NCBI GenBank assembly: GCA_041603795.1
Contig: JBFIDQ010000003.1
Span: forward strand, 1 to 38,453
Reading direction: 5' to 3'
DNA: 38,453 bases
DNA from: Chlamydiales bacterium
GTDB lineage: Bacteria; Chlamydiota; Chlamydiia; Chlamydiales; JBFIDQ01
Each line of letters starts with the position of its first letter. Positions within the stretch are counted from its first letter, which is position 1. A program made the position numbers and the translations under genes. The notes under the pieces are model-generated. The model did not search any database. It was not told the DNA's origin and worked only from the letters and a program-made list of their open reading frames with translations. Positions 1,518-32,000 of this stretch are shown one piece after another.

Positions 1518-1522
1518 TTTCA

Positions 1523-3043: not shown

Positions 3044-3100
3044 TGTCAGTTCGACCTGCAGCCCGGCCGCAAGTTGATGCAAATCGGAGCCCAAAGCTAC

Positions 3101-4522: not shown

Positions 4523-4544
4523 ATTGGATCCATAGGGTATATCT

Positions 4545-4690
4545 CTGACTGAACAATACCCTTATGTCGATTTTCAGTCAACAATAACCCCTACAAAACT
4601 GACTAAAGAACGACAATACGTCAATTTTCAGTCAGTAAAATTGAGTACCTTAGCTGACTGAATAACAATATTGTCGTCTAGTTTCAGCTA
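4545..4690. repeat. Three ~37-bp imperfect palindromic units (CTGACTRAA...TTTCAG) at 54-55 bp period
   Basis: Units at 4545-4581, 4599-4635 and 4654-4690. Confidence 0.75.
4553..4581 (-). promoter_or_regulatory. Putative sigma66/sigma70 promoter of the ATPase gene
   Basis: TTGACT-N17-TATTGT on the minus strand, about 30 nt upstream of ATG 4522. Confidence 0.5.
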
Positions 4691-4796
4691 CTGTGTGCTT
4701 TTTTAAGCGTTGGCAATTTTATGATTGGGGCCCAATTATTCTTGTTTTCCATACGGCAGGAGTTCTAGGCCTGCCCCTTCGCGTTCAATTGAAGGG

Positions 4797-12878: not shown

Positions 12879-12880
12879 CA

Positions 12881-15800: not shown

Positions 15801-16549
15801 GCTACCTTACCTTTGACATGAAGAAGGGATTCGCCGAGGTAGGAGTGGTAACAGATGCCAAAGAGTACCTCGATAAGATGATCGATGCAGGCCACATCAC
15901 CATGGAAAAAGGAGTCTCCTATATCTTCGCAGGTTCCTTTGAGAACCAGGTGCGAGCAGAAAAGAAGCTGGCGCTCGTTGTGCCGGCAACTCTACTGATC
16001 ATTTTCCTGATTTTGTATCTGCAGTTTAAATCGACTTACACATCGCTCACAATTTTCTCTGGCATCCTTGTGGCCTGGGCCGGAGGATTTATCCTTCTTT
16101 GGTTTTATGGCCAGCCGTGGTTCTGCAACTTCTCTCTGTTTGGAGTGAATATGAGAGAGCTCTTTCAGATGCATACCATCAACCTGAGCGTTGCCATTTG
16201 GGTAGGCTTCCTGGCGCTCTTTGGGATTGCGTCCGATAACGGCGTGCTGGTGGCATCTGCTTTGGACAGGGAGTTTGAAGAAAGAGACATCTCTTCCATC
16301 GATCAAATTCATGAAGCAACGGTCACTGCAGCTCAAAGGAGAATTCGTCCGGCCTTGATGACATCCGCCACAACGATTCTGGCTCTTCTTCCGGTCCTTA
16401 CCTCTTCTGGTAGAGGATCGGATATCATGATTCCAATGGCCATCCCTTCATTTGGAGGCATGCTAATCTCTCTGGTCACGCTTTTCGTAGTACCCGTCCT
16501 CTACTGCCACAGAAAGGAACGCCACTACACACGCAGGACGTTCCGATGA
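12881..16549 (+). CDS. cusA: CusA/SilA-family Cu(I)/Ag(I) RND permease, long variant
   Basis: PVDAIPDIGENQQIV, YWSRSRILEKL, GPDATALGQI, EFMPPLDEG, DPAPISMVET, RRIRPALMT. Confidence 0.93.
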   Translation: MSNEPDSLPSKLIRFCQNNQLVVIVIALFSLFMGVMIAPFDWSIEGVGLSKVPVDAIPDIGENQQIVFTQWPGISPRDIEDQVTYPLTSALLATPGVKTVRGYSMFGFSSIYVIFEEGVDFYWSRSRILEKLNSLPSGTLPDGVQPALGPDATALGQIFWYTLEGHDKDGNPTGGWGPDELRSVQDWVVRYALLAASGVSEVASVGGHVKEYQVDVDPDAMKAYGVTLSQVLAAVKGSNVDVGARTMEVNRAEYIVRGVGLLKTVKDLENTVIKAVDGNPIFLRNIGHISLGPALRRGALNKEGVEATGGVVVVRYGYNPLEAIQNVKEKIAEIAPSLPEKTLADGTVSKLTIVPFYDRTLLINETLNTLSEALILEILVTSLVVIILLRHLRSALLIASTVPMAVLLCFLVMRISGVDANIVSLSGIAIAIGTMVDIAIVISESIVKRLDGGFGESRKESVYHGTREVAGAVLTALATTVVGFLPVFAMEAAEGKLFRPLAFTKTFALLSAMLLALTVIPAIASFILRPSKKDGTKVNYAELLLLFGVAVTLTYLWMPLGLEKGIFQNASFVFLAIGGLLLGAYGFMWVYPTLLRYFLKNKKQFLCIPCGVVLFGMVVWLGIPGFYKGMGKEFMPPLDEGSYLFMPSTMPHASITESLDVLAKQNILIDRIPEVKGVVGKIGRVESPLDPAPISMVETVIDYHPKYLQDKDRATLFFDFDSSERDFARAVDGTPLLAPDGKPYKVQGKFNRDEENQLTASRFGQPFPMWRPPLDKQLNPGRESWSGIRNPDDIWNQITVESTIPGATSAPKLQPIMTRIVMLQSGMRAPMGIKIKGPTLEAIEKVALQFENALRSVPSIESNTVNADRLISKPYLEIRIDREAIAPYGVKITDIQKVITVAIGGMKMTTTIEGRERYPVRVRYMRELRDQIETIGEILVNTPSGAQIPISQLAKIEYINGPQVLKSEDGFLVGYLTFDMKKGFAEVGVVTDAKEYLDKMIDAGHITMEKGVSYIFAGSFENQVRAEKKLALVVPATLLIIFLILYLQFKSTYTSLTIFSGILVAWAGGFILLWFYGQPWFCNFSLFGVNMRELFQMHTINLSVAIWVGFLALFGIASDNGVLVASALDREFEERDISSIDQIHEATVTAAQRRIRPALMTSATTILALLPVLTSSGRGSDIMIPMAIPSFGGMLISLVTLFVVPVLYCHRKERHYTRRTFR

Positions 16550-16596: not shown

Positions 16597-16927
16597 GACG
16601 GAAATTTGCAGCGGCCGAATTCCACGTGGCGGTAGCCACGACATATGCTAGCCCCGTGCCACGAGCGATAGCGAGGCAGCTCGGGGTTTATCAAAACGAC
16701 ATTATGCGCCCCGGTAGGGGCGCTACCAATCATCCCGACAGCAATCTGAGAGCGATGACTTCGATAAGAGTGAGCACAGAGCCTTAGTGTTGTAGACGTG
16801 GCGCCCCTACCGGGGCGCATAATGTCGTTTTGATAAACCCCGAGCTGCCTCGCTATCGCTCGTGGCACGGGGCTAGCATATGTCGTGGCTACCGCCACGT
16901 GGAATTCGACCGCTGCAAATTTTCGTC
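16597..16927. repeat. Long inverted repeat (two 127-bp arms, 77-bp spacer), REP/REPIN- or MITE-like
   Basis: 16597-16723 is the reverse complement of 16801-16927 with 2 mismatches. Each arm holds hairpins CGTGGC-GGTA-GCCACG and GCGCCCC-GGTA-GGGGCGC. Confidence 0.92.
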
Positions 16928-16948: not shown

Positions 16949-17962
16949 TTATTCCATGCTTGGCAGGTATTCGCCCATGCTGGCGGCAGAATTGAACACG
17001 GCACGCTTGTGTAGTGCTTGTTGAGCTTTCTCTTTATTGGCCAGCTTGCCATTCCAGGCTTTTAGGGCGGGGGCCTGTAGGGCTCTGCCGTAGGAGAAGC
17101 TAAGGCGCCATGGCCGACTACCTCCTAAGGCATTCATCATATTAAGGTGTGCTGTTGCCTCGACATCACTTTGTCCACCTGACAGGAAGTTGATCGTTGG
17201 AACAGCGGCCGGTACGGTCTGACGCAAAATGCGGACGGTGGCTTCAGCGACCTCTTCGGTAGTGGCCTTATTTGGATTGTCACTTCCCGTAATAACCATA
17301 CTTGGTTTGAGTATCATGTATTCCAGCTGGACCCGATGCCGGTGTAGAGCATGAAAAACTTCGTGAAAAACGGCTAGATGAACCTGTTCGGACCTTTCCA
17401 GATCGTGAGTCCCCTCCATGAGTACTTCAGGCTCAACAATTGGAACGATACCTTGCGCTTGACAAATCGCAGCATAGCGCGCCAGGCACTCCGCGTTGGT
17501 CTCAATTGCGAGGCGGCTAGGGAGCGCATCTGTTATGGAGTATACGGCGCGCCATTTGGCAAAACGGGCCCCTTGTTCCTTGTAGGTTGCCAAACGATCG
17601 GACAGGCCATCTAAGCCCTGAGTCACTTTTTCACCGCGGGTTCCGGCCAGTTCAGCTAGACCTTTATCGACTTTGATGCCGGGTACGATCCCTTGTTCTC
17701 GTAAAATCTCTGGGATAAGCTTTCCATTGCTTGCCGTTTGTGCGAGTGTCTCCTCGAACAGAATGACGCCATGAATCTGCTTTCCTAAATCCGGAGTGCT
17801 AAATAGTATCTCGCGGTATTCACGTCGAGCGTCTTCCGTAGAGTCAACCCCAATGGTCTGAAAACGTTTGGCGATGGTTGGAGAGCTTTCATCGGCGGCC
17901 AAAATTCCTTTGCCGGGGACGCTCATCTTCTCAATGGTTTCTTGCATTTCAGTCTTACTCAT
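16949..17962 (-). CDS. fba: Fructose-bisphosphate aldolase class I (glycolytic family)
   Basis: GKGILAADES, GIKVDKG, ARFAKWR, VPIVEPEV, ILKPSMV (Schiff-base Lys), FLSGGQS, FSYGRALQ. Confidence 0.96.
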   Translation of the reverse strand: MSKTEMQETIEKMSVPGKGILAADESSPTIAKRFQTIGVDSTEDARREYREILFSTPDLGKQIHGVILFEETLAQTASNGKLIPEILREQGIVPGIKVDKGLAELAGTRGEKVTQGLDGLSDRLATYKEQGARFAKWRAVYSITDALPSRLAIETNAECLARYAAICQAQGIVPIVEPEVLMEGTHDLERSEQVHLAVFHEVFHALHRHRVQLEYMILKPSMVITGSDNPNKATTEEVAEATVRILRQTVPAAVPTINFLSGGQSDVEATAHLNMMNALGGSRPWRLSFSYGRALQAPALKAWNGKLANKEKAQQALHKRAVFNSAASMGEYLPSME

Positions 17963-18189
17963 AAATTCTCCTTCAAAATTAGGACTCCAGGATAGAAAGT
18001 ACCTTCATTAGAAATGGGTCAAGGGGTTTCATCTTAGATATAGCATCATGGAGAGAAGTTAGCACCAGGTTGGATGCCGAAATTTGATCATAGGCGGATG
18101 GGTAGCTGCAAAACGTGGGGGTTAAGCATCCGTCGTTTCTTCCGATAGCCTTCCTGAGCCCAAGGATGGGCAGGTGATAGGAGTTGGTT

Positions 18190-19167
18190 ATGTGGAACCT
18201 TAGAATGGCAGTAGCCGTTTTGCTGAGTTCGCCCTTGTATGGTGATGGAAACCCGGAACCATTTGGGCTGGAAGAAGTTGGGCCTGTGGTTCAGGCCAAT
18301 GCCCCCGTTGATGCTGCCCACCAGGCGTATCAGGATTTTCGTGCGACCATCCTCAATTATCTCGATGACCCTAATAATCAATCGAATAGCGGCAGCACGC
18401 CCTTTTTTGATCCCGTTGCCGGAACATTCATGGGTGGAACCCTCGTCGATGACAACCGTATTGTCCTCCCAATAGCGGCCCACCTACGCATGTATTTTGT
18501 TCGAGAAACGGCGGGATTTTCAAATAGCTTGGGGTTTGTGAAGAGCGAAAACACGGATCTTTTTGATCCTGTGAATCACAACTCACTCATTTTTCCGCTA
18601 ATCGCTGCTGATGGCGATGGTGTTGCTGATCAAGACCTTATTGGCGGACCCGGTTTTTTCAATAGTGGCATAACCGCTTCGCTGCCGGAGGCACCTGTTC
18701 TTCGGGAGCTATTCAATCCGGTAGACGATTTTGTCGACTTAGGAAGTTTTAACGAAGGCCAGGAGATCGAATTCTATTTGATTCCTGATGGCGCAGATGT
18801 TGCGTCCGATGCCACCCTTGCTACAGCAAAGCCCTGGTGGAATCCAAACGACGCATTCGATGCGGATGCACCGGTCTGGTGGAGCGATGATACAAAAAAC
18901 ATCGATTCCAATGATGGGGATACGGATGGCGTCCGACACCTACGTGTTTCCAGCTTTAGCCAGGCACAGACCACGTACTACCTGATGGCGTGGGAGGACA
19001 CTCCGTTCCCTGAAAACCTTGGGGACCCCGTGGATTTCAATGACGTCGTCACCGTTCTTCAGGTTATGCAGGTGCCTGAGCCATCCTTCTACCTTACGCT
19101 AACCGTATTCCTTTGCGTGGCTATGCTGACGAAGAAGCATCGCAAAGTCAAAAGAAGACGAATTTGA
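18190..19167 (+). CDS. Secreted PEP-CTERM sorting-domain protein with a DUF4114-like acidic domain
   Basis: N-terminal signal peptide, AWED...DFNDVV motif, and C-terminal VPEPS + hydrophobic helix + KKHRKVKRRR. AGGAG lies 6 nt before ATG 18190. Confidence 0.85.
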   Translation: MWNLRMAVAVLLSSPLYGDGNPEPFGLEEVGPVVQANAPVDAAHQAYQDFRATILNYLDDPNNQSNSGSTPFFDPVAGTFMGGTLVDDNRIVLPIAAHLRMYFVRETAGFSNSLGFVKSENTDLFDPVNHNSLIFPLIAADGDGVADQDLIGGPGFFNSGITASLPEAPVLRELFNPVDDFVDLGSFNEGQEIEFYLIPDGADVASDATLATAKPWWNPNDAFDADAPVWWSDDTKNIDSNDGDTDGVRHLRVSSFSQAQTTYYLMAWEDTPFPENLGDPVDFNDVVTVLQVMQVPEPSFYLTLTVFLCVAMLTKKHRKVKRRRI

Positions 19168-19214
19168 ATTTCAATTCCCCTATCGGCTAAGGTGCCGTAG
19201 CAGGGAGCACGAGA

Positions 19215-20633
19215 ATGGATTTGTCGTTTGTCAGTGATCAGGATGTCCTCCGTTGGCTTGCAACGGGTACGTTACTGTGCCTCGTCGTTCCAGCTCTAGC
19301 TTGCCTCTGTTTGGTCAGTCGACGGGTCATGCAATTCACGTTTGGGCTCATGGTTTTCTCTGTTTGTAGTCCGGATGATTTCGGCGTCAGCTTTCTTTCC
19401 CGACCGGAATATCGCGCTGCCATTCGCGGATTCGATCTTTACCTTGCCGACTTCTGCGCATTGTCTCTTGCCTTCGTCATTATTTTCCAAGCTAAAACCC
19501 GTCACGTACGCTGGGCTGTTCCACTTTTTTGGCCCTACGTATTGTTTTTGTTAGTGGGTCTATTATCGTGGGGCGCGGCTGTGCCCTCCCTTGTTGTCCC
19601 AGACACACGTGTCCTTGAAACCATAACGGTCACGCCCCCACCCTATTCAATCTTTGACACCTCACTCTACCCTTGGTTTGAGATATGGCGTGTCGTACGG
19701 GGATTGCTCGTGTTCTGGGTTACCGTGAATTTCGTCCGCGACGAAAAAGACCTCCAGACGTTCGTCTGGGCCCTCCTTGCCATGGCGGCCTACCTCACTC
19801 TACAGGCCTTACGAGAGCGCTATTTTTATGGCTCCTATCGTGTATCGACCAATCTACTACACCCCAACGACTTTGCCATTTTTTGCGCCATGCTAAGCGC
19901 CGTTTTCCTACCGCTAGCAATTCAGCAAAAAAACATATGGAAGAGTCTTATTTTGGGCGTGGCAACGCTTGCTATGGGCGGATGTATTGTCATGACCGTT
20001 TCCCGTAGTGCCCTAGCCATTTACCTCGCTATCGCCCTCCTTACCGTTCTGATTCTGCTACCGCGATACTTTAGCGGAAGGAACCTTGCCTACCTTGGAG
20101 CTGCTTTGATTCTGATGGGAGCCGGTGCGGCACGAGCATGGGATACATTGGAGAATCGTTTTTTTAGATTGGCGAGTGTTGAACGCAGCATGAACGAGAG
20201 AGATATGTTCAATAAGGAAGCTGTGCTGATGGTGAGAGACCACCCGTTTGGCGTCGGCCTCGGCAATTTTTCCGCTTGGTCATGGGAGAAGTATGCTGAG
20301 TTGGTGGATGCCGACCTCGAGCCTGGTGTCCCCGCCCATAACATTTGGTACCTTACCTATGGGGAGATGGGTTTTGCCGGAGTAGCAGCCCTCCTCGCGA
20401 TTTGGTTTCGGACCTATCAGCTATCCCTTGTGGGGTGGTGGAGAGGATTAGAAGACTTCCCTAGAGTTCTTCTACTCGGAATCGTTCTCGCCACCGTTGC
20501 CCTTCACTTGCAAAGCCTGTTCCATTTTTCCTATCGAAATGGCGGCATCTATCACCTATTGCAAGTTTTCGTGGGCATATTGGTTGCGCTTATTTTGCTT
20601 CAGAAGGAGCAACGGCGAGCCACTCTTGCATAA
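19215..20633 (+). CDS. O-antigen ligase / Wzy_C-family polysaccharide polymerase
   Basis: Multi-TM protein with HPND, TVSRS, HPFGVGLGNF and AHNIWY...GEMGFAG motifs. Confidence 0.85.
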   Translation: MDLSFVSDQDVLRWLATGTLLCLVVPALACLCLVSRRVMQFTFGLMVFSVCSPDDFGVSFLSRPEYRAAIRGFDLYLADFCALSLAFVIIFQAKTRHVRWAVPLFWPYVLFLLVGLLSWGAAVPSLVVPDTRVLETITVTPPPYSIFDTSLYPWFEIWRVVRGLLVFWVTVNFVRDEKDLQTFVWALLAMAAYLTLQALRERYFYGSYRVSTNLLHPNDFAIFCAMLSAVFLPLAIQQKNIWKSLILGVATLAMGGCIVMTVSRSALAIYLAIALLTVLILLPRYFSGRNLAYLGAALILMGAGAARAWDTLENRFFRLASVERSMNERDMFNKEAVLMVRDHPFGVGLGNFSAWSWEKYAELVDADLEPGVPAHNIWYLTYGEMGFAGVAALLAIWFRTYQLSLVGWWRGLEDFPRVLLLGIVLATVALHLQSLFHFSYRNGGIYHLLQVFVGILVALILLQKEQRRATLA

Positions 20634-20701
20634 AAGGCGTCATCCTGGTATTTGATAAAAATAAGATTATATAATTTAGCTGTTTGAGATGAGGGTAGTG
20701 T

Positions 20702-22936
20702 ATGGACGATGATCACCCATCCCCTGAGGAAGAAAAGCCTCCCGAGGAAGAGCTCTCTAGTGAGGAAATGGCTCGCGCCTACCGCAATTTGGCCTCTCTA
20801 GAGGACTCATTTCGCAGTCTAAAACAAAAACTAGGTCATGCTGAAGGAGGCGACGTGAACCCATCTGAACCAGAAGCATCTACCGATAGAGAAATCCCCT
20901 CACTCTGCCGTGATACGAGTGAACAAGACTTTGTCACTCGCGTAGACTGGAGTAAAATAGGTCTCGGTGTGAAGCGTAAGCTTTGGCTGGTCATGACCTG
21001 CGGCGTGATTGCAGCCGCTATTGGTGCTTTAGGCGCCTTCTCCATGTCGAAAATGAAGCAAGCGACGGCCGTCGTTCTCTTCACCCAGCAACAGAGCATT
21101 AGCGACCCACAGGGGGTCATAGCATCGCGATTCAACGTACAAACCATTGCGGAAATGATCCAATCCCCTCACCACTTTGAAAAAGTGCGTCAGATGCTTG
21201 GAATTGATATTGACGTGAATCGAATTGCCTCAATGGTAAAAGTGATTTCAAGCCGCACCTCAAACGTCATTCAGATCACGGCGGCCTCCGAAAATCCGGA
21301 CCTCTCCATCGATGTGGCAAATGCCCTTGCCCAAGTTAGTGTGGACGACAGCAAGCGTCGCTATCGTGAGCACGCTATGGGCGCCTACGAATACTACGCA
21401 AAAGAGGAAGAGGGTGCTCGAAAGAATCTCGACGAGTACTCCGCTGCAATCACTCGATTCAAGCAGCAGGCTAAAGTGTTTGAGATGGACCTCTCCAACG
21501 AAAGCGCCTCTGAAAACGCTTCCAATCTACAAAAAGAGTACCGTGATGCGGCTATTGAGTATGAGGAACTTCTAGTAGAGTATGAGAATCTACAGAGGGA
21601 AATTGACAAGCTTCCAGAGCACGTGGTGCGCTATGAGTATGATGATAATCCTCTCAAGGCACGAATTGGCCACAAAGAAATGTCGCTGTTGGAAGCTCGC
21701 ACAAAATATGGCCCAGAAAATCCAAAAGTTCAGCTCCTAGAGGAAGAAATCCGACAGCTTCGCATGGCCCTATCAGACTCCAGCTTTGACGACAGTCGTG
21801 AGCAGGTGTATGAGAGAAACTTCATCAAAGAGCAGCTCAATATCGAACAGATGCGGCTACAGGGGAGACTAAGAGGGGCTCAGAAAAAACGCGAAACGCT
21901 AAAACTTGCTTTGTCAGATCTTGACGATAGTTATGAGGAGATCCCTCAGGAGCAACTTGAATACGCAGCACTTTTACGGCGATCCAATCTAGCAAATGAG
22001 GAGGTGATCAAACTCACCGAAGTTAAGCGCGATGCAAAGAGCGCTATGGAACGGGAAGTGAGTGATCTCAAAATTAGGGAGGAGGCCACTGAGGCCACTC
22101 GCCGAAGCACATTTGCTACGCGTGCGCTCCCAACCCTAGCGTTTGCCTTTGGAAGCATACTGGGACTCTTTTTCGTGGCGATTTCAGAAATCACCGATGG
22201 AAAAATCACGACTCCTGGTCAGGTTCGCAAAAACTACAGATCACCTCACCTACTGAGCATTCCGAGGCTAAAAAATCTGGAAACTGATTCGGAAGAAAAG
22301 CTCCTGTTTTACATCCGCACTCTCTCTGAGCGATTGAGTCAGTTGGTACACGATCGCCCCTTCGGTTCGGTAGCGTTCACTAGCTCAAGCGTGGGTGAGG
22401 GAAAAAGCACCATCGCATTCCATCTGGCGAAGTACTACCAACGCCTTGGAATTCGTACGGCCTATGTCGACTTCAGTTATGGTCCGAATCCATACATCAA
22501 TAGCGAATCGGGAATGGTCCTCAACACCTTCCTACATGGCGAAGCAACCCTCGCAGACATCACCATTCCGGGTGTAGTTGATTGCTTCAAGGCGGGCAAT
22601 GAGGAGGACATGAAAGAGCTCCTCAAAAGCGTCAAGATGCGGGAACTCTGGCAACAGCTGAACGACGAGTATGACATGGTCGTCGTAGAGACTCCGGGAC
22701 TGATCGAAGAGCAATATGCTGTCAATATCGCGATTCGTGCCGACCTCTGTCTCTTCGTCCTTGGAGCCTCTCAAGTTGAAAAATCAGAAATCGACTCAAG
22801 CCTACATGAGCTAGAGAGCAGTGGAGTCCGCCCTCACGGGATACTTCTAAGTCGGGTAAACCCTTCGTACATTGAGGACCCGATCATACTAGCCCATGTC
22901 AAAAAGAACGGGCGGAGTAGTGGCCGATCAGCCTAA
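20702..22936 (+). CDS. Wzc/GumC-like chain-length determinant with BY-kinase-like domain
   Basis: Two TMs flanking a coiled-coil periplasmic region (YGPENPKV); Walker A TSSSVGEGKST. Confidence 0.85.
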   Translation: MDDDHPSPEEEKPPEEELSSEEMARAYRNLASLEDSFRSLKQKLGHAEGGDVNPSEPEASTDREIPSLCRDTSEQDFVTRVDWSKIGLGVKRKLWLVMTCGVIAAAIGALGAFSMSKMKQATAVVLFTQQQSISDPQGVIASRFNVQTIAEMIQSPHHFEKVRQMLGIDIDVNRIASMVKVISSRTSNVIQITAASENPDLSIDVANALAQVSVDDSKRRYREHAMGAYEYYAKEEEGARKNLDEYSAAITRFKQQAKVFEMDLSNESASENASNLQKEYRDAAIEYEELLVEYENLQREIDKLPEHVVRYEYDDNPLKARIGHKEMSLLEARTKYGPENPKVQLLEEEIRQLRMALSDSSFDDSREQVYERNFIKEQLNIEQMRLQGRLRGAQKKRETLKLALSDLDDSYEEIPQEQLEYAALLRRSNLANEEVIKLTEVKRDAKSAMEREVSDLKIREEATEATRRSTFATRALPTLAFAFGSILGLFFVAISEITDGKITTPGQVRKNYRSPHLLSIPRLKNLETDSEEKLLFYIRTLSERLSQLVHDRPFGSVAFTSSSVGEGKSTIAFHLAKYYQRLGIRTAYVDFSYGPNPYINSESGMVLNTFLHGEATLADITIPGVVDCFKAGNEEDMKELLKSVKMRELWQQLNDEYDMVVVETPGLIEEQYAVNIAIRADLCLFVLGASQVEKSEIDSSLHELESSGVRPHGILLSRVNPSYIEDPIILAHVKKNGRSSGRSA

Positions 22937-22958
22937 ATATTGGAAGGAGAGAACGAGT

Positions 22959-24146
22959 ATGGCAAGGAAATGGACCTCACTGTTGGCGCTGCTCCTTCTC
23001 TTGATGGTGACCTCCTGCGCAAGAAAAACAGCAGCAGTAAAAGTACCCGCAGAAAAACGCGCTGCAAAACTCACCGATGATGGTTGGCGAAGAGTTGGTG
23101 ATAAAACGGATTGGGACCGAGAGGGAAAAATCCGTGCGGGTCTAACAGACGATGACTTCAAGCCGTATGATCCAAGCAAGTACGTCATCGCCGTTGGGGA
23201 TATTCTTGAGGTCTCCATCTTTGGACACGGCGACCTCCTCAGCAAGGACATTCCTGTTGCCCCGGATGGTCACCTCTACTACTTCTTTCTCGATGGCATT
23301 CCAGCTGCTGGACGCACCCCTAGAGATGTCAGCAACGAGATAGAGGCCAACATTCGCCATCTATTTGCTAGTCCAGAAGTCACCATCATTCCAAAAAATA
23401 CGACCTCGTCAACCTATGTCATCATGGGCAAGGTACAGCACCCTGGCGAATACACGATCGATTCATCACTGACCCTACGTCAGGCCATCGGCTCGTCCGG
23501 AGGCCTCGCCTCAGGTGGGTACCGAGGCACGTCCATCAACGTGGCTGCCCTCGACCACTCGTTTGTGGTACGTAATGGAAGAAAGCTTCCTGTCGACTTC
23601 AAAAAGCTGCTCAGTGAGGACAATCCGGATGATAGCCAGGATATCTATGTGCGACCAGGTGACTACATCTATATTGCATCTGGGCTGATTCATAAGATCT
23701 ATAAGCTCGGAGCTGTTCCAGAAAATCGAGCGGTAACTTGGTCAGATGATTTAACATTGGTCACAGCACTAACTGGCTACTCCGGACAAGATGGCGGATT
23801 CCATGGCACGGTGACCAGCACGTCCAATGCTGATTCGACTCACTACCGCACTACTGATTACGGCGGTGGGCGTGGCGTTGACCTCCCATACCGTGCAGAG
23901 GCGGCGATCGATCGCATCCTCATCATTCGCGGAGCCCTCGAAAAGCCTAGCGTTTTGACGGTCAATTTGGTCGACATCTTGAACGGAAAGGCCAACGACG
24001 TTTACCTCGTGCCGGGAGACATCATCTTCGTACCTGAAAAGAAACATAAGTTTACCCGCCACCTCATCAAGCGAGCAATTCTCACCTTCGCTTCCAGCTT
24101 TGCTGGTACGGCAGGGGATCACTTTACTGAAGCATGGTTGGATTAA
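22959..24146 (+). CDS. Wza-like polysaccharide export lipoprotein (Poly_export + SLBB)
   Basis: Lipobox MARKW...MVTSC, YVIAVGDILEVSIFG, VRPGDYIYI, LVPGDIIFVP. Confidence 0.85.
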   Translation: MARKWTSLLALLLLLMVTSCARKTAAVKVPAEKRAAKLTDDGWRRVGDKTDWDREGKIRAGLTDDDFKPYDPSKYVIAVGDILEVSIFGHGDLLSKDIPVAPDGHLYYFFLDGIPAAGRTPRDVSNEIEANIRHLFASPEVTIIPKNTTSSTYVIMGKVQHPGEYTIDSSLTLRQAIGSSGGLASGGYRGTSINVAALDHSFVVRNGRKLPVDFKKLLSEDNPDDSQDIYVRPGDYIYIASGLIHKIYKLGAVPENRAVTWSDDLTLVTALTGYSGQDGGFHGTVTSTSNADSTHYRTTDYGGGRGVDLPYRAEAAIDRILIIRGALEKPSVLTVNLVDILNGKANDVYLVPGDIIFVPEKKHKFTRHLIKRAILTFASSFAGTAGDHFTEAWLD

Positions 24147-24149
24147 AGG

Positions 24150-25247
24150 ATGGGCATGATGTCGCAATTTCTAACGTTTTTGGCCCTCTTCTTTATGACA
24201 GCAACTCCCGTTGTTAGTGAAGAGTTCGTTCCTGTGGAAATAGGACCGCTAGCGGGGGATGATGCACTCCTCACGAGTGACGAGGATAGAGTCGTCAACG
24301 ATCGCAAGTTCTTTGAAAAAGCGGAGGAATCTCTGCGAAAGGAATCGATGGTCGTCGATGGTTACCGACTTCGAGTGGGGGATACGATTCAGGTATCCAT
24401 CTATGGAGAGGCCAATACGGAGCGTGTGCTGACGGTGGACAGTCATGGCGGAATCTCCTATCTGCTGATCGATCGAGTGCTAGCCGTTGGAAAAACCATC
24501 AATGAGCTACGCAAAGAGATCAATGACAAGCTACGCGAAAAGCTGCGCTTTGCCCTCGTAAACGTGGTACCGGTTCGCTTCGGAGGCCTGCACTACACTT
24601 TACTTGGTGAAATAGAGATCCCGGGAAAAAAGCCCATTGTCGGCACAACGACTCTGCTAGAGGCTCTCGCATCTGGCGGTGGATTCCGAATGGGGTACTT
24701 TCGCGATGGAACGGTTGACTTAGCCGATCTTCACTATGCCTTTGTGGCGCGCAATGGGGAGTACGTACCGGTGGACTTCTATGCTCTTATTGTCGAGGGC
24801 GATGTCTCGCAAAATATTGAGATCAAAAACAATGACTACATCTATATTCCAAGTTCACTAAACCGACAGATCTATGTGCTGGGTCAGGTCAACCTCCCAG
24901 CAAATATTGGTTACCTCAACAACCAAACCCTACTGGGCGCGATCGCCAAGGCAAGAGGAATTACCCCCCTGGCATCAGATGATGCGTACATCATTCGGGG
25001 ATCGCTCGCCGAGCCTCAGAAGATAAAGGTCAATTTGCACAAAATGTTTCGTGGCGAGGAACCAGATATCCTTCTGAAGCCGGGAGACATTGTTTTCGTG
25101 CCGCCAAGACAAACGCTATTCATCGAGGACATCCTAAAGACAGCCATCCGCTCCTTCGTTTGGGCCTCTGCTCACGTGATGGGCCGTGAGGCGTTCGAAG
25201 AGGTGCACCCACACGCTGCCGGTAGCGGCAGCTTCAACGCTTTTTAA
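24150..25247 (+). CDS. Second Wza-like polysaccharide export / SLBB protein
   Basis: Signal peptide, YRLRVGDTIQVSIYG, IYVLGQV, LKPGDIVFVP. Confidence 0.85.
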   Translation: MGMMSQFLTFLALFFMTATPVVSEEFVPVEIGPLAGDDALLTSDEDRVVNDRKFFEKAEESLRKESMVVDGYRLRVGDTIQVSIYGEANTERVLTVDSHGGISYLLIDRVLAVGKTINELRKEINDKLREKLRFALVNVVPVRFGGLHYTLLGEIEIPGKKPIVGTTTLLEALASGGGFRMGYFRDGTVDLADLHYAFVARNGEYVPVDFYALIVEGDVSQNIEIKNNDYIYIPSSLNRQIYVLGQVNLPANIGYLNNQTLLGAIAKARGITPLASDDAYIIRGSLAEPQKIKVNLHKMFRGEEPDILLKPGDIVFVPPRQTLFIEDILKTAIRSFVWASAHVMGREAFEEVHPHAAGSGSFNAF

Positions 25248-25249
25248 CG

Positions 25250-26506
25250 ATGAAAGAGATCAAGAAGGTCTGCCACATCATGAGGCGCTTCACCCTCGAT
25301 CAATGGGGGGGAACGGAATCTTCTGTTCTCAATATTTCACGACACCTTGAAATGCGGGGTATCGAAAGCATCATCTATTCAACCGACATGTTTGAGTCGG
25401 CTGGCCACGATGAAATCGACGGAGTCGAGGTGCAGCGCTACCGTTATTCATTTCCTTGGTTTCAATTGAGTGAACAGGAAAAAATGGAAATGGCTCTAAG
25501 AGGGGGGAGTCCGCTCTCGCTACCTCTCTTCTTTTCACTGCTCAAGGAAAAAGATCTTTCTCTCATCCACACTCATGTTCAGGATCGCCTCGGGGGAATG
25601 GCAAGGACTGTTGCACGGTGGCGGCGCATTCCATACTTCGTGACCCTACACGCGGGCTATCTGACCCTATTGAAGAGTCATTCTGAGAGGGTGATGGAAC
25701 CGTTTCAAGACAAGTGGGAGTGGGGCAAAGCATTTGGATTTGCTTTTGGATCTCGACGCACTCTAGTCGATGCTGCGGGTATCATTTGCGTGGGTAAAGA
25801 CGAATATGAGGTCCTCTCAGAAGAGTATCCTGACAAAAAGATTTTCTACCTCCCCAATGGTGTGAACACTGAGCGCTTTTGCAATGGCGACGCCTCCTTG
25901 AGCCGCGCGCATTTTGGGTACACTCCAGACGACTACCTCATCATCAACGTAGGCCGTATTGACGAGCAGAAGAATCAAGTGCTTCTAGTGCAAGCCTTTG
26001 CACATTACGCAAAAAATCACCCCAAAGCAAAGTTGCTCATTGCGGGGCCAGTAACTGTCGACAGCTACCGCCAATACATTGAGCAAGTGATCGTAGAGAA
26101 GGGAATTTCCGACCGAGTGAAAGTGATTCCAGGCATTCCACCACACGACCCTCTTCTTGCGAGCCTCTTTAAGGCAGCTGACCTCTTTGTCCTGCCAAGC
26201 CGCATTGAGCCGTTCGGCATTGTAATTCTGGAAGCATGGGCGGCGGGACTGCCAGTAGTCGCAAGTCGTGTCGGCGGCATACCAGGGTTTACACGCCATC
26301 GTGGAAACGCTTTGCTGTTCACTTCGGAGAATGAAAAGGAACTTGTCCAGGCGATGGAGGAGGTCTCCACTAATGAATCACTTGCTCAACGCCTGATCGC
26401 AAACGGAAAAAAAGAAGTGTTGCAATACGACTGGGAAACGGTAACCGGCCAACTGCTAGAGATCTACGACACGGTACGGCGCGGCAGGGGTGCAGCAAGG
26501 GTATAG
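25250..26506 (+). CDS. Glycosyltransferase family 4
   Basis: WGGTE, PNGVN, VGRIDEQKNQ, FVLPSRIEPFGIVILEAWAAGLPVV. Confidence 0.92.
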   Translation: MKEIKKVCHIMRRFTLDQWGGTESSVLNISRHLEMRGIESIIYSTDMFESAGHDEIDGVEVQRYRYSFPWFQLSEQEKMEMALRGGSPLSLPLFFSLLKEKDLSLIHTHVQDRLGGMARTVARWRRIPYFVTLHAGYLTLLKSHSERVMEPFQDKWEWGKAFGFAFGSRRTLVDAAGIICVGKDEYEVLSEEYPDKKIFYLPNGVNTERFCNGDASLSRAHFGYTPDDYLIINVGRIDEQKNQVLLVQAFAHYAKNHPKAKLLIAGPVTVDSYRQYIEQVIVEKGISDRVKVIPGIPPHDPLLASLFKAADLFVLPSRIEPFGIVILEAWAAGLPVVASRVGGIPGFTRHRGNALLFTSENEKELVQAMEEVSTNESLAQRLIANGKKEVLQYDWETVTGQLLEIYDTVRRGRGAARV

Positions 26507-27707
26507 GAGGGGGATTGATTTGACGCTAGCTGAGCAAAAAGTGAAGGTGAGGGCAAAACTTAGCGTGGGATTTTCCAGCTTCGTTCTGCAAAGCGGCCTA
26601 TCAGGAATCTCCACCTACATCGAGAATCTCTTGCCCGCTTTGCTGAAAGCAAACCCAAACAATCACTACGATGTTTTTATTCCTGAATGCGACCGACATG
26701 TTCTTCAAGAGCTAGGGAGCCAGGAACGTCTAATCTCGACCTCATCGCATTTCACGCGCCCCATTCCATCCATTCTCTGGCACAATCTAGTTCTACCTCG
26801 CATCACAAAGAAGCAGAAATACGACTGCATCCATATCCCCACGTATCGTCGAATCCCTGCCATCAAAAAATGCCCAGTAGTCGCCACGGTACACGACCTC
26901 GCTCCGCTCTCCTATTCCCGCAAATATGGTCGACTGCACACTCTGTTCAATGCGACAACGGTCCCTCGATTGATAGAGGGATGTGACCACGTGGTAGCGG
27001 TGAGTCACTATACCAAACAGGACATCTTGAGGTACTCTAATATTCCGGAAGAAAAAGTTTCCGTGATCTATTCCGGAATCGATCATGACATCTACCGCCG
27101 TGCACCCGAAGATGAGGCGTGGCAACGTCTGGGAGAACGATATAACCTTAACCAGCCTTTCATGATCTACGTCTCACGCCTCGAATACCCCGGAAAGAAT
27201 CACCTCAACCTCATCCGCGCCTTCGAATCGTTCAAGCGCCGCAACCAAACCCAACATCAGCTCGTATTAGTAGGTGCAGACTGGCCAGGAGTCGACCAAA
27301 TTCGGGCAGCAGCGGCGGCAAGTGAGTTTGCGCACGACATTCATATCCTCGGATTTGTGCCCACGCAGGACGTCGTGGCGCTCTATTCCGTATGTGATCT
27401 GATGGTGCACCCTTCGTACTTCGAAGGATTTGGGTTCCCCGTGGTGGAAGCTTCCGCCTGCGGCGCTCGCGTCATCTGCTCGAATAACTCATCGCTACGA
27501 GAACTCGGCAAGCTCGGCAACCTGCCCATGTTTGTCCCAGGGGATATGATTGCAATCCGCTCCTGCATGGAGACCGCTCTTTCACAGGAGTGGACACAAG
27601 CCGACCGTGCCGAAGCGGTACGCTTTGCTGACCAATTCCAATGGAACGAAACGGCCAACAGGCTCCTCGATGTCTACGAAATGGCCGCTAACAGCGGGTC
27701 CCGATAG
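26490..27707 (+). CDS. Glycosyltransferase family 4 (start uncertain)
   Basis: SGISTY, TVHDL, VSHYTK, HPSYFEGFGFPVVEASACG. Confidence 0.9.
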   Translation: MQQGYRRGIDLTLAEQKVKVRAKLSVGFSSFVLQSGLSGISTYIENLLPALLKANPNNHYDVFIPECDRHVLQELGSQERLISTSSHFTRPIPSILWHNLVLPRITKKQKYDCIHIPTYRRIPAIKKCPVVATVHDLAPLSYSRKYGRLHTLFNATTVPRLIEGCDHVVAVSHYTKQDILRYSNIPEEKVSVIYSGIDHDIYRRAPEDEAWQRLGERYNLNQPFMIYVSRLEYPGKNHLNLIRAFESFKRRNQTQHQLVLVGADWPGVDQIRAAAAASEFAHDIHILGFVPTQDVVALYSVCDLMVHPSYFEGFGFPVVEASACGARVICSNNSSLRELGKLGNLPMFVPGDMIAIRSCMETALSQEWTQADRAEAVRFADQFQWNETANRLLDVYEMAANSGSR

Positions 27708-27845
27708 ATTTACACCTTATGGCTCACGCCAATAGCTGGAGTTCTGACCAGGCGTAGTCTCTAGCAAGTCATATCGAGCGACGGCATCAACTTGTGGACA
27801 CGAAGCAATCGGGCTATAGGTTCACTCCATTCATAAATCGTAAAA

Positions 27846-28388
27846 CTATCCACTCTCAGTGGATGGTTGCTGAAAATGATCTTCGCTAGGAGAGTTGTCC
27901 ATGATCTCTATCGCTTCCTGCCAGGTTTCCTTGTGCATTCCCAGAAAAGACATCTCCTCGGAAACCTGGCTATCATAGTAAATCTTTTCAGGAATACCAG
28001 TAACAAGAGCTATATTTTTTACTACACCCCCTCTAGGATCATAAAAGTAGAAAGTCAAACGTAGATGCTCAAAACCGAAGACCCCACCTTCAGCAAACGA
28101 TCGAAGTTTTGAATTCCGATTAAGTTGATTAATAAACTCTCGACAGGAGCCCACAAATATCTCTCTTGCTTCAGAAACAACGGGGTCAAGAGGTATTCCG
28201 ACCATCAAGCTAATGTACTGGATTTGACCCTTGAGATGCGCCACCCAAATTTCACAACTCTCGGAACCTGGGTATCTCTGCTCGATTTTGTCAGCAAAAA
28301 TAGAAGCTTCTGCGTAGGCTTCTTTTACCCCCTCTCCTTGAAAGCAGCAAGTAAGCATCATTAGAAAAAAAACAAGCAATGGATTCAT
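27846..28388 (-). CDS. Putative orphan Rhs immunity protein (lipoprotein-like), paralog of 28516..29061
   Basis: Hydrophobic leader ending in LTCC. Shares AY.EA..FA.KIE.RYPG, QI.YISL and ETWQEAIEI.DN.P.EDHF with its neighbour. Confidence 0.7.
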   Translation of the reverse strand: MNPLLVFFLMMLTCCFQGEGVKEAYAEASIFADKIEQRYPGSESCEIWVAHLKGQIQYISLMVGIPLDPVVSEAREIFVGSCREFINQLNRNSKLRSFAEGGVFGFEHLRLTFYFYDPRGGVVKNIALVTGIPEKIYYDSQVSEEMSFLGMHKETWQEAIEIMDNSPSEDHFQQPSTESG

Positions 28389-28504
28389 CCAGCATATCTC
28401 CTTTGGAATCTTCTATTATTATCCCGCCTAGCCTCAGCATATGTCTCGCTAACGAGCGGATGGGGGCTAGTCATAGGTTTGTTATTTAGGGCACCACGCA
28501 CCAT
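28385..28504 (-). pseudogene. Orphan Rhs toxin C-terminal remnant (39 aa, not in the ORF track)
   Basis: Reads MVRGALNNKPMTSPHPLVSETYAEARRDNNRRFQRRYAG*. It aligns without gaps to the Rhs C-terminus (8/25 identities), and its TGA overlaps the ATG of the next gene. Confidence 0.7.
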
Positions 28505-28515
28505 TCTGCCGTTGC

Positions 28516-29061
28516 CTACTCAATATTTTGTTCAAAGTGATCTTCACCTGGAGTGTTATCCACGATCTCTATGGCTTCCTGCCAGGTTTCCTCGTGAATT
28601 TTTTCAAGCTTTCCACTTTTCTTTGAATCATGGTAATAGACAAGTGAATCGCGAATAGAGAAGACATCCGTTATATTTTTTTCAGAATTGCTACCAGAAC
28701 TAGCGAATTCAAGCCTTAAATTCGAGTGAGACTCATTAAAAATATTTTCTTTCGTAAAAAGACGCAATGCTATGTTTTGATTAAGCTGATTGACAAATTC
28801 AAGGCCGAGACTAACCGATAAAACCCTAGCCTCCATCAGGTCAACTTCAACAGGAATGGCAATCGCTAAGCTTATATAGTGAATTTGCTCATCAAAATAC
28901 GACCCTCCAATTCCATAGGCTCCAGCACCCGGATACCTATGCTCGATTTTCTGCGCAAATAAACCTGCTTCTGTATAAGCCCCGTCAACATGATCTTTCA
29001 TTTCAGACCCTTCAAAGCAGCTGGAAAAAATTAAAATAAAAAAAATAAATAAAAATCTCAT
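28516..29061 (-). CDS. Putative cognate Rhs immunity protein (lipoprotein-like)
   Basis: ATGA overlap with the Rhs stop, leader MRFLFIFFILIFSSC, visibly AT-rich. Confidence 0.75.
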   Translation of the reverse strand: MRFLFIFFILIFSSCFEGSEMKDHVDGAYTEAGLFAQKIEHRYPGAGAYGIGGSYFDEQIHYISLAIAIPVEVDLMEARVLSVSLGLEFVNQLNQNIALRLFTKENIFNESHSNLRLEFASSGSNSEKNITDVFSIRDSLVYYHDSKKSGKLEKIHEETWQEAIEIVDNTPGEDHFEQNIE

Positions 29062-32000
29062 AATTGGCCGTAATGTTCAAAAAATTCTGCGTGATCACGC
29101 TTTCGCGCATGCCTATATGTCTTATTAAAGAAGCCGTGCGCACTACCCCAGGCTTCGTTAGGATCCCCCAAGTACGTTATGTAGGGGCGTCGCACGCCAT
29201 CTCGCACGTCTTTATTGAGCAACCGTGGGACAAGATCTCCTCTTGCCACGTAGTTCATGACGGAGGCGTAGCGCTTTGTATCGGTAACCAGTAGTCCACC
29301 ATAAGTTCGGACATGAATACGTTTGGCAGTGAAGTCCGATAGGGCAGCTAGCGCAAGTCCCCCTTGAATGGTGCCGTCACTGTGGAGGGTGACATAAGTC
29401 ACCTTATTAGGGTTTTCTCGCACCATCTTCTCAATTTCAAACTGTAGCCTTCGACTTTGAGGTGTTCTAGTCTTCAGAAACAGAGCGCGGGGGGTGTGCT
29501 TTAACTTGGAAAAGTGCGAGTAGCACGGGTTGTAGACAGCACCGCTATTACAGCCTCCAAGTCCCCTAGACGCGTCATCAAGCATTTTCAATGCATCAGA
29601 TGCCCTACAGTTCCAACCATTCATGGATATTGCCTGAATTCTAGAGTTGGGATTGCTTCCGATGTCGAAACGAAAAAAGGATGTCTTGCGGTGATTGGTC
29701 CATGTTGTCGGACGAGAGTGATACTGAGTTCCTGGTCGGAAAGATGCCGTTGAACCTAACCAAGAGGAGCTCGCGCTACTTGCAAAGGTAGAAGATTGGA
29801 AGAGTCCAGTGGGATCGACGGAGTCAAGTGTCTGATTTTTTACGTAGGCGTAGAGGTTGGGGCCGTCAGCAAAATCAAGTGGATCTGGGGTGAGGAAGCG
29901 ACCCGTGGAAGGTTGATAATAACGCTTGCCAAAGTAGTGGAGGCTAGACTCCCCATCAAAACGTTTTCCCTGATAGCGCCATGGAGAAAGCGTGTTGGCC
30001 TCCTCCTGTTCGCCGAAAGCAGAATAGCGGTAATTTGCTGCTATCTCGCCATCTCGTGAGACAAGGCTAAGGATGCTACCTCGATGGTCGTAGAGGGGAA
30101 TATAGGTTTGACCGTGGAGCTCGAAGGCTACCGAATGGTGAGGCCCGGGTAGACGCAGCTCTATGATGGCATCGTCTTGGTAGCTTCCAATTTCTTCGTC
30201 GCGGTAGTAGAAGTATTGCTCTGCCTCTTCTGCCTGCTGCTTGCTAAGGCGTCGACCAAAGGAATCATAGGTGTAGGTTGTTTCGATATCTCCTTGCGTT
30301 ACACTTACAAGTCGGTTGAGAGCGTCATAGGTATAGATGTTTTGGGAGTCTGAGAGCAGATTGCCATTTGCATCATACCGGTAGTTATTGTGGCCGTCGC
30401 TTTCCAGCTGATTGAGGTCATTTACTTCGTGTGCGGCGCCATCCTTGCTCTGGCGACTGTGGAGGGAATCGTTTTCATAAGTGTGGTCCGATAGGCCACT
30501 TTCCGTTTGGAGCTGATTGCGCCCATCATAGGAGAAGTTATGTGTTTGACCATCGATGGAAATCTGTGTGATCCGGCCGCCATTATCGAGGGCGTCGATG
30601 GTGTAGTCGAGTTGTGGGGTTTTGATTGAAGAGGGGCGTCCCGCAAGATCATATTGGGTGGCACGCTGGCCTGCGTTACCCATGAGCGTTTGTTGCGTGG
30701 GGCGCCCTTGCCAGTCATATTGATCGAAGGAGTGGGTTTGCCCCTTGCGCATGATCTCGGTGACAAATGGGCCGTCATACCTGTAGTCGATAAGAGAATC
30801 GTCAGGAAGAATAATGCGAGAAAGGCGGCCCATGGCATCGCGTTGGTAGTCGCTTGCCAATCCATTGGCCATTTGCTCGTGAACCAGACTGTCCCACTCG
30901 TCGTATTTTCTGATGGTACTTGACCCGTCGATCTGATTCGTGATCTCGAGAAGGTTATCCTTTAAATCGTACGTATAGATGTAATGAATGGTGCCATCGG
31001 AGCTTCGGTAGGTGGCAAGGCGACCCAATGGATCATAGCTTTTGTATAAGACCTGGCCATCTGGCTTGGTCGTTGCAATGACCCTACCCGCAAGATCATA
31101 TTGGTAGCGAGTCACCTTGCTTCCCTCGACAAGAGAGAGGACCCGCCCCATTTGATCACGTTCCCATTCAACTTCATAGACTCCACGACTCTCACCACGA
31201 AAAAGCCTGTGGTTGATCTGCTTTACGATTTTGCCACTGGCGTCGTAGAGCGTTTCGACTTTCTCTGTGCGTTCGCCAAAGGAGTTAAATCGCTGTTTGA
31301 GCGCCACTTTTCCGTTGGAATTATGGACTTCAACCAGCTGATTCCCGAGGGAATCTGTGGAAGAGCTTTTTAGGACTCGCTGTCCATGCTTGTTCAGATG
31401 ATCATAGTCGTAACAGTAGTGTGTTTCTCTCCCCTCCGGATCGATGAGCAGAACGAGTTTTCCTCTTGAGTCATAGAGCGACTGGGTTACTGATGCCTCG
31501 TGATCACTGCTCCAGACACGTTTCTCGATCACTCGATTGCAGTCGTCGTAAATTGACTCCTCTTTAGAGAAAATATCACTAGCGTCACTCACAGAACATA
31601 TTTCGATTACTCGACCCGCCACATCAAACGTTTTGAGCGTTCCGAGTCCGCCTTCCATGACGGAACACTCGCGTCCCATCGTGTCGTAGCCGAAATGCGT
31701 TTCCCTTCCTGCCTTTCGCTCCAAAATCTTTCGTCCGGCACCATCGTACTCGAATTCCGTCACAACCCCATTGGCATCGATCGTCTTGCGAAGATGGAGG
31801 CTATCGTATTCGTGGTAGGTGCCCTTTAGAAAGGTATCGTCGAGCTTGAAGACTTCCATCGCTGTAGGGCGCTGTAGAAGATCATAACTGTAGATCGTCT
31901 TGGTCTTATCACGATGAACTTTTGTGTGGACGGTCCCATTGAGATTGTAGCGGATGCGTTCCTTGGAACCATCAGGGAATATTTTTCGAGTTTGTTGTCC

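Follow-up and report, generated by a model that had tools for sequence, protein, structure and literature searches.

A probable Wzy-dependent polysaccharide assembly and export locus, with PEP-CTERM/exosortase sorting, in an environmental chlamydia

Introduction

The usual picture of chlamydiae is of bacteria without a capsule, with an infectious stage bounded by a disulfide-linked protein envelope and a truncated lipopolysaccharide. Seven same-strand genes at positions 18190–27707 of contig JBFIDQ010000003.1 of a Chlamydiales bacterium (assembly GCA_041603795.1; the whole 38,453-bp contig is called the window below) raise the question of whether such a bacterium can build and export a surface polysaccharide, and whether it also sorts proteins by the PEP-CTERM/exosortase route. 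An initial annotation of the window had read these genes as a Wzy-dependent exopolysaccharide (EPS) locus headed by the gene for a PEP-CTERM protein. Our analysis indicates that this is quite probably a genuine chlamydial locus for Wzy-dependent assembly and export of a surface polysaccharide, and that it would work with PEP-CTERM/exosortase sorting encoded elsewhere in the genome. The genome contains all of the parts, the organism is a chlamydia, and in about 20 chlamydial species the parts occur together and have descended largely vertically. In what follows, G000 is the metagenome-assembled genome (MAG) to which the window belongs, other G numbers are genomes of a sample of the phylum, and contigs named without a genome are those of G000.

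Gene content of the locus

An open reading frame (ORF) check placed seven plus-strand ORFs in 18190–27707 at the positions given by the initial annotation, and domain searches bear out its description of the last six as Wzy, Wzc-like, two Wza and two GT4 genes. The first (18190–19167, +) encodes a predicted secreted DUF4114 protein with a PEP-CTERM-type tail, a putative exosortase substrate, assigned by its Pfam match and its tail architecture. It is 325 aa long from an ATG start, with a TTG also present at 18184. Its N-terminus, MWNLRMAVAVLLSSPLYG, is short and hydrophobic (a signal peptide judged by eye only), and its Asp/Asn-rich body matches Pfam DUF4114 at 29.2 bits (cut-off 27). The C-terminus, VPEPSFYLTLTVFLCVAMLTKKHRKVKRRRI, consists of VPEP followed by 17 mostly hydrophobic residues and then KKHRKVKRRRI and the stop, which is the architecture of a PEP-CTERM tail. 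The gap of 47 bp to the next gene (19168–19214) is as first described and, in a terminator scan, contains no terminator-like site. Promoter and terminator scans of 17800–28000 as a whole gave counts no higher than the chance level.

The second gene (19215–20633, +) encodes a polytopic Wzy_C-family membrane protein with about 9–11 hydrophobic segments, which matches Pfam PF04932 at 49.2 bits (cut-off 31.7) and no NCBIfam model at E≤0.01. PF04932 spans polymerases, WaaL ligases and O-oligosaccharyltransferases (O-OTases), and the protein may accordingly belong to any of these three kinds, the ligase being of the O-antigen type. Orthologs with 33–39% identity lie near the Wzc gene in G104, G256 and G064. 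The third gene (20702–22936, +) encodes a polysaccharide co-polymerase with a predicted cytoplasmic P-loop ATPase domain and a Wzc-like architecture, recognized by Pfam matches to Wzz, CbiA and MipZ, with Wzz at 24.6 bits, just below its cut-off of 25.5. Transmembrane (TM)-like segments at residues 93–116 and 474–498 enclose the Wzz-like region and precede the P-loop domain, the layout of a Wzc-type PCP-2a protein with a periplasmic Wzz-like part, two TM segments and a cytoplasmic Walker A motif GEGKS. A GEGK[ST] P-loop is found in 20 of 22 chlamydial orthologs, the other two (G278 and G162) having GEGR. Matches in the PDB, all weak, are to CapB/Etk/Wzc kinase domains and to PslE.

Two OPX (Wza-like) export proteins follow, both above the Pfam cut-offs for Poly_export (PES) and SLBB: Wza1 (22896–24146, +; Poly_export 49.6 bits, SLBB_2 36.7 bits) and Wza2 (24150–25247, +; 50.7 and 52.2 bits). 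From a probable start at an internal Met (22959), Wza1 would be a lipoprotein, with the lipobox-like sequence LMVTSC, and Wza2 has a signal-peptide-like N-terminus that is devoid of a lipobox cysteine. The last two genes encode GT4 glycosyltransferases, GT4a (25250–26506, +; Glycos_transf_1 132.6 bits) and GT4b (26490–27707, +; Glycos_transf_1 94.9 bits, Glyco_transf_4 81.4 bits). No clear ortholog of GT4b was seen in the loci of eight relatives. Pfam and NCBIfam scans of the window agree with the initial annotation that no exosortase, flippase or priming transferase is among its ORFs.

Exosortase and other components elsewhere in the genome

The initial annotation had proposed searching the genome for an exosortase, whose lack it took to speak against its reading, and for further PEP-CTERM proteins, Wzx and PrsK/PrsR. 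All but the last pair were found. Contig C204 carries an exosortase of 272 aa that scores 70.2 bits against PF09721 (cut-off 25.7) and 48.6 bits against TIGR04178 (cut-off 23). Its Cys171, Arg216 and His237, which we take to be the exosortase catalytic triad, are invariant in 11 chlamydial sequences. No named Xrt subtype matches it at cut-off, the best being XrtA with 41.4 bits (cut-off 208); the subtypes listed by Haft et al. in 2012 reportedly comprise XrtA to XrtY and the cyanoexosortases. A large TPR-protein gene lies directly upstream. The protein on C204 belongs to a subfamily of exosortases of about 270 aa, found at 80 loci in at least 12 phyla; at 73 of these loci the exosortase gene is likewise immediately preceded by a TPR gene. 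Judged by model scores, this TPR-coupled subfamily is covered by no named NCBIfam subtype. The GT2 gene that adjoins the exosortase on C204 has the same arrangement at none of the 80 loci.

About 14 PEP-CTERM ORFs are present in the genome, 12 of them above the TIGR02595 cut-off and two, the window protein and one on C124, recognized by a pattern scan. Among nine that were scanned with Pfam, four pass PF07589, one contains BNR/Asp-box repeats and one DUF4114. The window protein has two paralogs: the one on C174, 41% identical, scores above the TIGR02595 cut-off with 19.8 bits, and the one on C81, with 75% identity over 65 aa, is cut by the contig end. An EpsI-like ORF on C33 is 38% identical (E 8e-52) to a DUF3485 protein of G367, which passes the EpsI (DUF3485) model at 30.6 bits and whose gene sits two genes downstream of the G367 exosortase; in both genomes a small membrane ORF precedes the EpsI-like gene. 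The genome further encodes three Bac_transf priming enzymes, five Wzx-like flippases and 4–5 Wzy_C proteins. With a second co-polymerase-like gene adjoining a Wzy_C gene on C246, and a Wzx-like gene beside a Bac_transf gene on C245, it seems to hold more than one polysaccharide locus.

Distribution and gene order in Chlamydiota

We scanned a sample of 400 genomes of the phylum. PF09721 is matched at E≤0.001 in 26 of them, four of these weakly, and an exosortase of the chlamydial type is present in 20, G000 included (E≤1e-18). Ten of these compared by BLASTP are 46–58% identical to that of G000, and one in a further relative is 43% identical. A Wzc-like gene accompanies the exosortase in 20 of 20 genomes. 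The Wzc-like protein is full-length in 22 genomes (E 1e-82 to 1e-171, 28–41% identity) and split over two contig ends in G285. PEP_CTERM matches (E≤0.01) occur in 21 genomes, of which 18 are among the 20 with an exosortase; the only matches among the other 380 are single weak ones in G014, G283 and G288. The two exosortase genomes that have no such match, G104 and G162, have PEP-tailed DUF4114 homologs. Exosortase, Wzc and PEP-CTERM are all absent from the 24 genomes (1.0–1.3 Mb) of genus g4. This fits the earlier statement that PEP-CTERM sorting is not a feature of Chlamydiaceae, if g4 is Chlamydia, as its genome sizes lead us to infer. Positive genomes include assemblies of 2–4 contigs (G215, G256 and G376). 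The relatives carry these genes on contigs of 1–4 Mb, and TopA is on the same contig as the exosortase and/or Wzc in G104, G333, G064, G256, G215 and G376.

Longer exosortases of 534 and 646 aa were seen in G273:C1 (L015) and G355:C13 (L016), with PF09721 E-values of 1e-61 and 5e-31. They are unrelated to the chlamydial type, and neither genome has a Wzc-like or PEP_CTERM match; they may belong to other sorting systems or to contaminant contigs.

The most conserved part of the module is the triad Wzc-Wza1-Wza2, which is adjacent and in the same order in all eight chlamydial relatives fetched. Within a 20-kb stretch of the triad, an ortholog of Wzy is present in three of the eight and one of GT4a, with 52% identity, in two (G256 and G064). 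The clearest chlamydial example of a complete system is G367:C12:14000–33900 (L060), where a cluster of about 17 kb holds the whole of it in one place: the exosortase with two TPR genes, the small membrane ORF and an EpsI-like gene, several glycosyltransferase genes of the GT2 and GT4 families, and the genes for Wzy_C, Wza2, Wza1 and Wzc. A pair of DUF4114/PEP-CTERM genes lies immediately upstream of the cluster. In G104, the nearest relative, genes for a Wzx-like flippase and a GT4 enzyme lie upstream of Wzy-Wzc-Wza1-Wza2. The Wza2 ortholog of G104:C40 (L057), at 13181–15979, is an ORF of 932 aa, about 600 of which form an N-terminal extension that Pfam does not match.

Homologs of the DUF4114 protein are present in six of 22 other chlamydial genomes searched, and in five of these six at least one copy lies 4–13 kb from an exosortase gene. 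Alignment A2, which comprises the window protein and 12 chlamydial homologs, shows P-E-P and a Tyr three residues after it to be invariant in all 13 tails, and every member also has a hydrophobic N-terminus and a D-(Y/F)-(N/D)-D motif. A profile of this DUF4114/PEP-CTERM family has no match at E≤1 among PDB sequences. A homolog search with the window protein itself, which covers only relatives that share words with the query, returned that protein alone.

Phylogeny

In a quick maximum-likelihood tree, the exosortase of G000 and all 17 rows labelled Chlamydiota fall into one clade (SH-aLRT support 89, not starred). The clade also holds eight rows without a label, three or more of them from contigs of GTDB-chlamydial genomes, and two rows labelled Verrucomicrobia, one being a contig of the GTDB chlamydia G278 and the other on a long branch. 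Clades of Chlorobiota and deltaproteobacteria stand beside the chlamydial one, and Verrucomicrobiota are deeper. In the Wzc tree, the 22 chlamydial sequences form one clade (99) that is sister to eight verrucomicrobial sequences (93), with a support of 98 for their union; the initial annotation had suggested such a comparison with Verrucomicrobia. A Wzc at 27–32% identity is present in 10 of 251 sampled Verrucomicrobiota. Eight of the ten are full-length and 29–32% identical, and each of these eight has a Wza1 ortholog next to it; the other two are partial, at 27–29%. We also considered whether the exosortase and the export triad had travelled together between phyla, and dropped this idea: the Wzc proteins of five non-chlamydial carriers of the exosortase subfamily (Chlorobiaceae, Desulfoluna, Limisphaerales and Pedosphaera) are only 20–24% identical.

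Mapped on the trees, GTDB family labels change nine times for TopA, eight times for Wzc and nine times for the exosortase, the minimum being eight, and G000 is paired with G104 in both the TopA (98) and Wzc (100) trees. These patterns fit a single early origin in Chlamydiota, after which the genes were passed on mainly vertically and were lost many times. Of the two sources that the initial annotation had offered, ancestry in the Planctomycetes-Verrucomicrobia-Chlamydiae (PVC) group and acquisition by transfer, the data would be compatible with either, provided that the transfer was a single ancient one.

Host identity and assembly

The window is contig C3 of a 2.9-Mb MAG of 395 contigs, estimated to be 93% complete and 1.3% contaminated. 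Chlamydial hallmark genes stand at 1056–7364, encoding a SctQ/FliN-like protein, a Ser/Thr kinase fused to a PP2C/SpoIIE-like domain and a TopA-SWIB fusion. Elsewhere the genome encodes NTT/TLC nucleotide transporters in four full-length genes, and a fragment of a fifth stands at a contig end; the NTT family was found in none of 14 control genomes. TopA is 61–67% identical to that of 22 relatives, and the contigs of several of these are labelled Parachlamydiales, Parachlamydiaceae, Waddliaceae or Chlamydiae in NCBI GenBank. Its gene content identifies the organism, a host-dependent environmental bacterium, as a chlamydia. One public sequencing run contains the stretch, a DNA run of a marine metagenome that is probably the source; no RNA run is listed.

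The half of the window with TopA and the type III secretion system (T3SS) gene is separated from the half with the locus by a near-perfect palindrome of 331 bp at 16597–16927, between an RND pump gene and an aldolase gene. Its arms are 130 nt long and 98% complementary, with a center of 71 nt. At least 25 further contigs of the bin carry copies with 77–96% identity, frequently at the very end of the contig; one of these contigs is C208, which has an NTT gene. Rfam has no match to any part of the window, palindrome included. The palindrome looks like a dispersed repeat of the kind of miniature inverted-repeat transposable elements, which fragments the assembly. In metagenome contigs, k-mer depth is 8.5–8.9 across 12–26 kb, equal on both sides of the palindrome and rising to 24–45 at the palindrome itself, and GC content is even across the locus.

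Proposed function and comparison with known systems

From these sequences we infer the biochemical steps and a product as follows. One of the three Bac_transf enzymes encoded elsewhere would prime undecaprenyl phosphate, and the two GT4 enzymes, with others, would assemble a repeat unit on it. A Wzx-like flippase, also encoded elsewhere, would flip the unit, which the Wzy_C protein would then polymerize or ligate, and the Wzz/P-loop co-polymerase together with the lipoprotein-like OPX and the second OPX would export the polymer across the outer membrane. The DUF4114 protein would be secreted by Sec and held by its C-terminal helix until the C204 exosortase, partnered by the TPR protein and helped by the C33 EpsI-like protein, cleaves it at the PEP motif and it is handed to the cell surface or the polysaccharide layer. 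About 13 other PEP-CTERM proteins would be processed likewise. A role in the extracellular stage, as a capsule or a glycoprotein system, may be suggested, as it was in the initial annotation.

For comparison we used the PEP-CTERM/exosortase (EpsH, XrtA-type) EPS systems of Proteobacteria, Cyanobacteria and Verrucomicrobia, as described by Haft et al. 2006 (PMC1569441). Shared with these are several proteins that have a signal-peptide-like N-terminus and a C-terminus made up of PEP, a TM helix and a basic cluster, a polytopic exosortase, here with Cys, Arg and His, and neighbors of the TPR, EpsI-like, chain-length determinant, polysaccharide export and GT4 kinds. The best NCBIfam matches of the co-polymerase and of both OPX proteins are to XrtA/PEP-CTERM-system models, those of the co-polymerase including the XrtA-system chain-length determinant and tyrosine autokinase models, and all of them are below cut-off. 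In contrast to the XrtA-type systems, no Xrt subtype is assigned at cut-off and PrsK/PrsR are missing here, the parts are spread over at least three contigs, and the host is a T3SS- and NTT-bearing chlamydia.

Set beside the Wzy-Wzc-Wza system of E. coli group 1 capsules, the locus likewise encodes a membrane protein of the Wzy_C family. Its co-polymerase resembles Wzc (7NHR) in having two TM segments and a P-loop domain predicted to be cytoplasmic, and its OPX protein Wza1 resembles Wza (2J58) in combining PES and SLBB domains with a probable lipoprotein signal. The locus differs in having two tandem, conserved OPX paralogs, of which only one is lipoprotein-like, and in that no Wzb phosphatase was seen in Pfam scans of the window. 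Wza2 aligns with 2J58 (E 3e-15) over chain residues 98–277 only, and the alignment thus stops short of the C-terminal outer-membrane helix. The verrucomicrobial Wzc-Wza module, with its related Wzc and its adjoining Wza1 ortholog, is similar, but its Wzc forms a clade separate from the chlamydial one.

A full-text literature search, which covered main texts and few subscription journals, returned no report of an exosortase/PEP-CTERM/polysaccharide-export system in a chlamydia. The matches, PMC10957091 among them, name Chlamydiae in their matching passages only within the name PVC, and 'chlamydia' does not occur in the available passages of PMC1569441. Systems of this kind are known. Their occurrence in host-dependent environmental chlamydiae, as a conserved and mostly vertically inherited module, seems to be unreported.

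Alternative explanations

Several observations weigh against reading the locus as part of a PEP-CTERM/exosortase-linked export system. The tail of the window protein scores 7.3 bits against TIGR02595, below the cut-off of 16, and has no match to PF07589 at E≤10. Its assignment to PEP-CTERM is therefore based on architecture and the family alignment and not on hidden Markov models (HMMs): the tail architecture and hydrophobic N-terminus that had first been described are there, but HMM scores at cut-off are not. The TPR protein on C204 reaches only 37.2 bits with the PrsT model (cut-off 312) and the EpsI-like ORF 18.3–18.6 bits with the EpsI model (cut-off 26.1), and PrsK and PrsR have no match above cut-off in the genome, the best scores being 84.5 bits against 300 and 424.2 against 502.6, respectively. 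As for the co-polymerase, 'Wzc-like' is apt for the architecture but not for the C-terminal tyrosine cluster of E. coli Wzc, which is lacking in all 22 chlamydial orthologs (the window protein has one Tyr within its last 30 residues), and the acidic residue of Walker B is Glu in this genome. G195, G199 and G286 have Wzc-like export genes and no exosortase or PEP_CTERM match, so the export module can stand alone. Finally, among the Logan contigs listed, which cover all bins, 16631–16879 (the palindrome) and 19095–19122 (inside the tail-coding region, with no repeat there) are not bridged, so that only the MAG assembly joins the locus to TopA and supplies the final codons of the tail. By their similarity to other chlamydial sequences, the chlamydial origin of the export genes is independent of those two joins.

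How closely the PEP-CTERM gene belongs to the export genes is a further question. None of the eight relatives has an ORF with a PEP-CTERM tail within 10 kb of the triad, so the coupling is not conserved, and the earlier observation that this gene heads the locus is true here but special to this genome. Its place could then be an accident of gene order, the protein being one of about 14 substrates without a special link to the polysaccharide. We consider this a serious though somewhat improbable alternative. The homologs of the window protein in relatives cluster near the exosortase gene instead, and where G000 has the PEP-CTERM gene, G104 has its Wzx-like and GT4 genes upstream of Wzy. On the other hand, the gene is on the same strand as Wzy_C across the short, terminator-free gap, and in G367 a single cluster brings the PEP-CTERM genes together with the exosortase and the export genes. 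An alternative that concerns the product, and which seems unlikely to us, is that no free capsule or EPS is made and that the Wzy_C protein is a ligase or O-OTase, glycosylating lipid A-core or the PEP-CTERM proteins to give a glycoprotein coat. The breadth of PF04932 allows this, and with 4–5 Wzy_C genes in the genome, such roles could be divided among them. Haft and colleagues, in 2006, reportedly also proposed glycosylation of PEP-CTERM proteins. Glycosyltransferases are among the proteins that co-occur with EpsH according to Haft et al. 2006 (PMC1569441). However, a co-polymerase with two OPX proteins is machinery for exporting long polymers, and it is this triad that is most conserved.

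The remaining alternatives concern the source of the genes. That the contig or bin is chimeric, with the locus and/or the exosortase coming from a co-binned verrucomicrobium or other free-living bacterium, would be conceivable for a MAG in so many contigs, with a dispersed and unbridged palindrome between the TopA/T3SS half and the locus half, and with the exosortase on a separate contig of 5.9 kb whose GC of 0.47 is at the 5th percentile of the bin, a point that also counts against the proposed pairing of locus and exosortase. We nevertheless give it very little credence. The best matches of Wzc are chlamydial (41% identity to G104) against 20–32% in other phyla, the chlamydial Wzc proteins are one clade, and the G000 exosortase is inside the chlamydial clade. 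The palindrome recurs throughout the bin, the NTT-bearing C208 included, the contamination estimate is low, and relatives carry the same genes on very large contigs. The depth check proposed in the initial annotation gave equal values on the two sides of the palindrome, and the mis-assembly from another organism that it had named as a danger finds no counterpart in the export genes, whose closest relatives are chlamydial. Recent horizontal acquisition by this lineage from a free-living PVC or other bacterium is hardly more credible. The exosortase subfamily does move between phyla, given its presence in at least 12 of them and the Chlorobiota and deltaproteobacterial clades near the chlamydial one. 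Yet the branching of the Wzc and exosortase trees agrees almost perfectly with GTDB family labels, the pairing of G000 with G104 matches that of TopA, and the composition of the locus is not deviant.

Implications

A genuine chlamydial locus, as favored here, extends the PEP-CTERM/exosortase system to a phylum for which we found no prior report, and places a polysaccharide exporter and exosortase sorting in about 5% of sampled chlamydial species, with mostly vertical descent. It suggests a coat of polysaccharide and protein in some environmental lineages, which would bear on survival outside hosts, attachment and uptake by hosts. A wider proposal, which is tentative and rather doubtful at present, is that an exported polysaccharide coats the extracellular stage of host-dependent chlamydiae in at least nine GTDB families and anchors exosortase-processed PEP-CTERM proteins, and that the module was inherited from an ancestor shared with Verrucomicrobiota and lost in the animal-pathogen lineages. 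TopA-SWIB is present in all module-bearing chlamydiae of these families, and T3SS and NTT genes also in the genome studied here. If the proposal were true, a capsule or matrix would belong to the ancestral traits of chlamydiae and would mark an environmental, surface-attached phase.

Other genes in the window

A WecG/TagA-family glycosyltransferase (196.8 bits) is encoded at 36498–37898, with a C-terminal extension of about 190 aa that has no family match; this gene, 9 kb downstream of the locus, may act in the same glycan pathway. Between the two, at 29058–34220 on the minus strand, is the gene for a 1720-aa RHS-repeat protein with a DUF6531 domain, an RHS core and a C-terminal region of about 250 aa that has no assignment. 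It is followed by two paralogous 180-aa ORFs (28516–29061 and 27846–28388, both minus) with lipoprotein-like N-termini and no family match, which sit in a GC dip (0.415). Together, the genes at 27846–34220 look like a polymorphic toxin with candidate immunity genes. Upstream of the palindrome, 10174–16549 holds a CusCBA-like efflux operon encoding an outer-membrane factor, a membrane-fusion protein with two heavy-metal-binding domains and an RND pump of 1222 aa.

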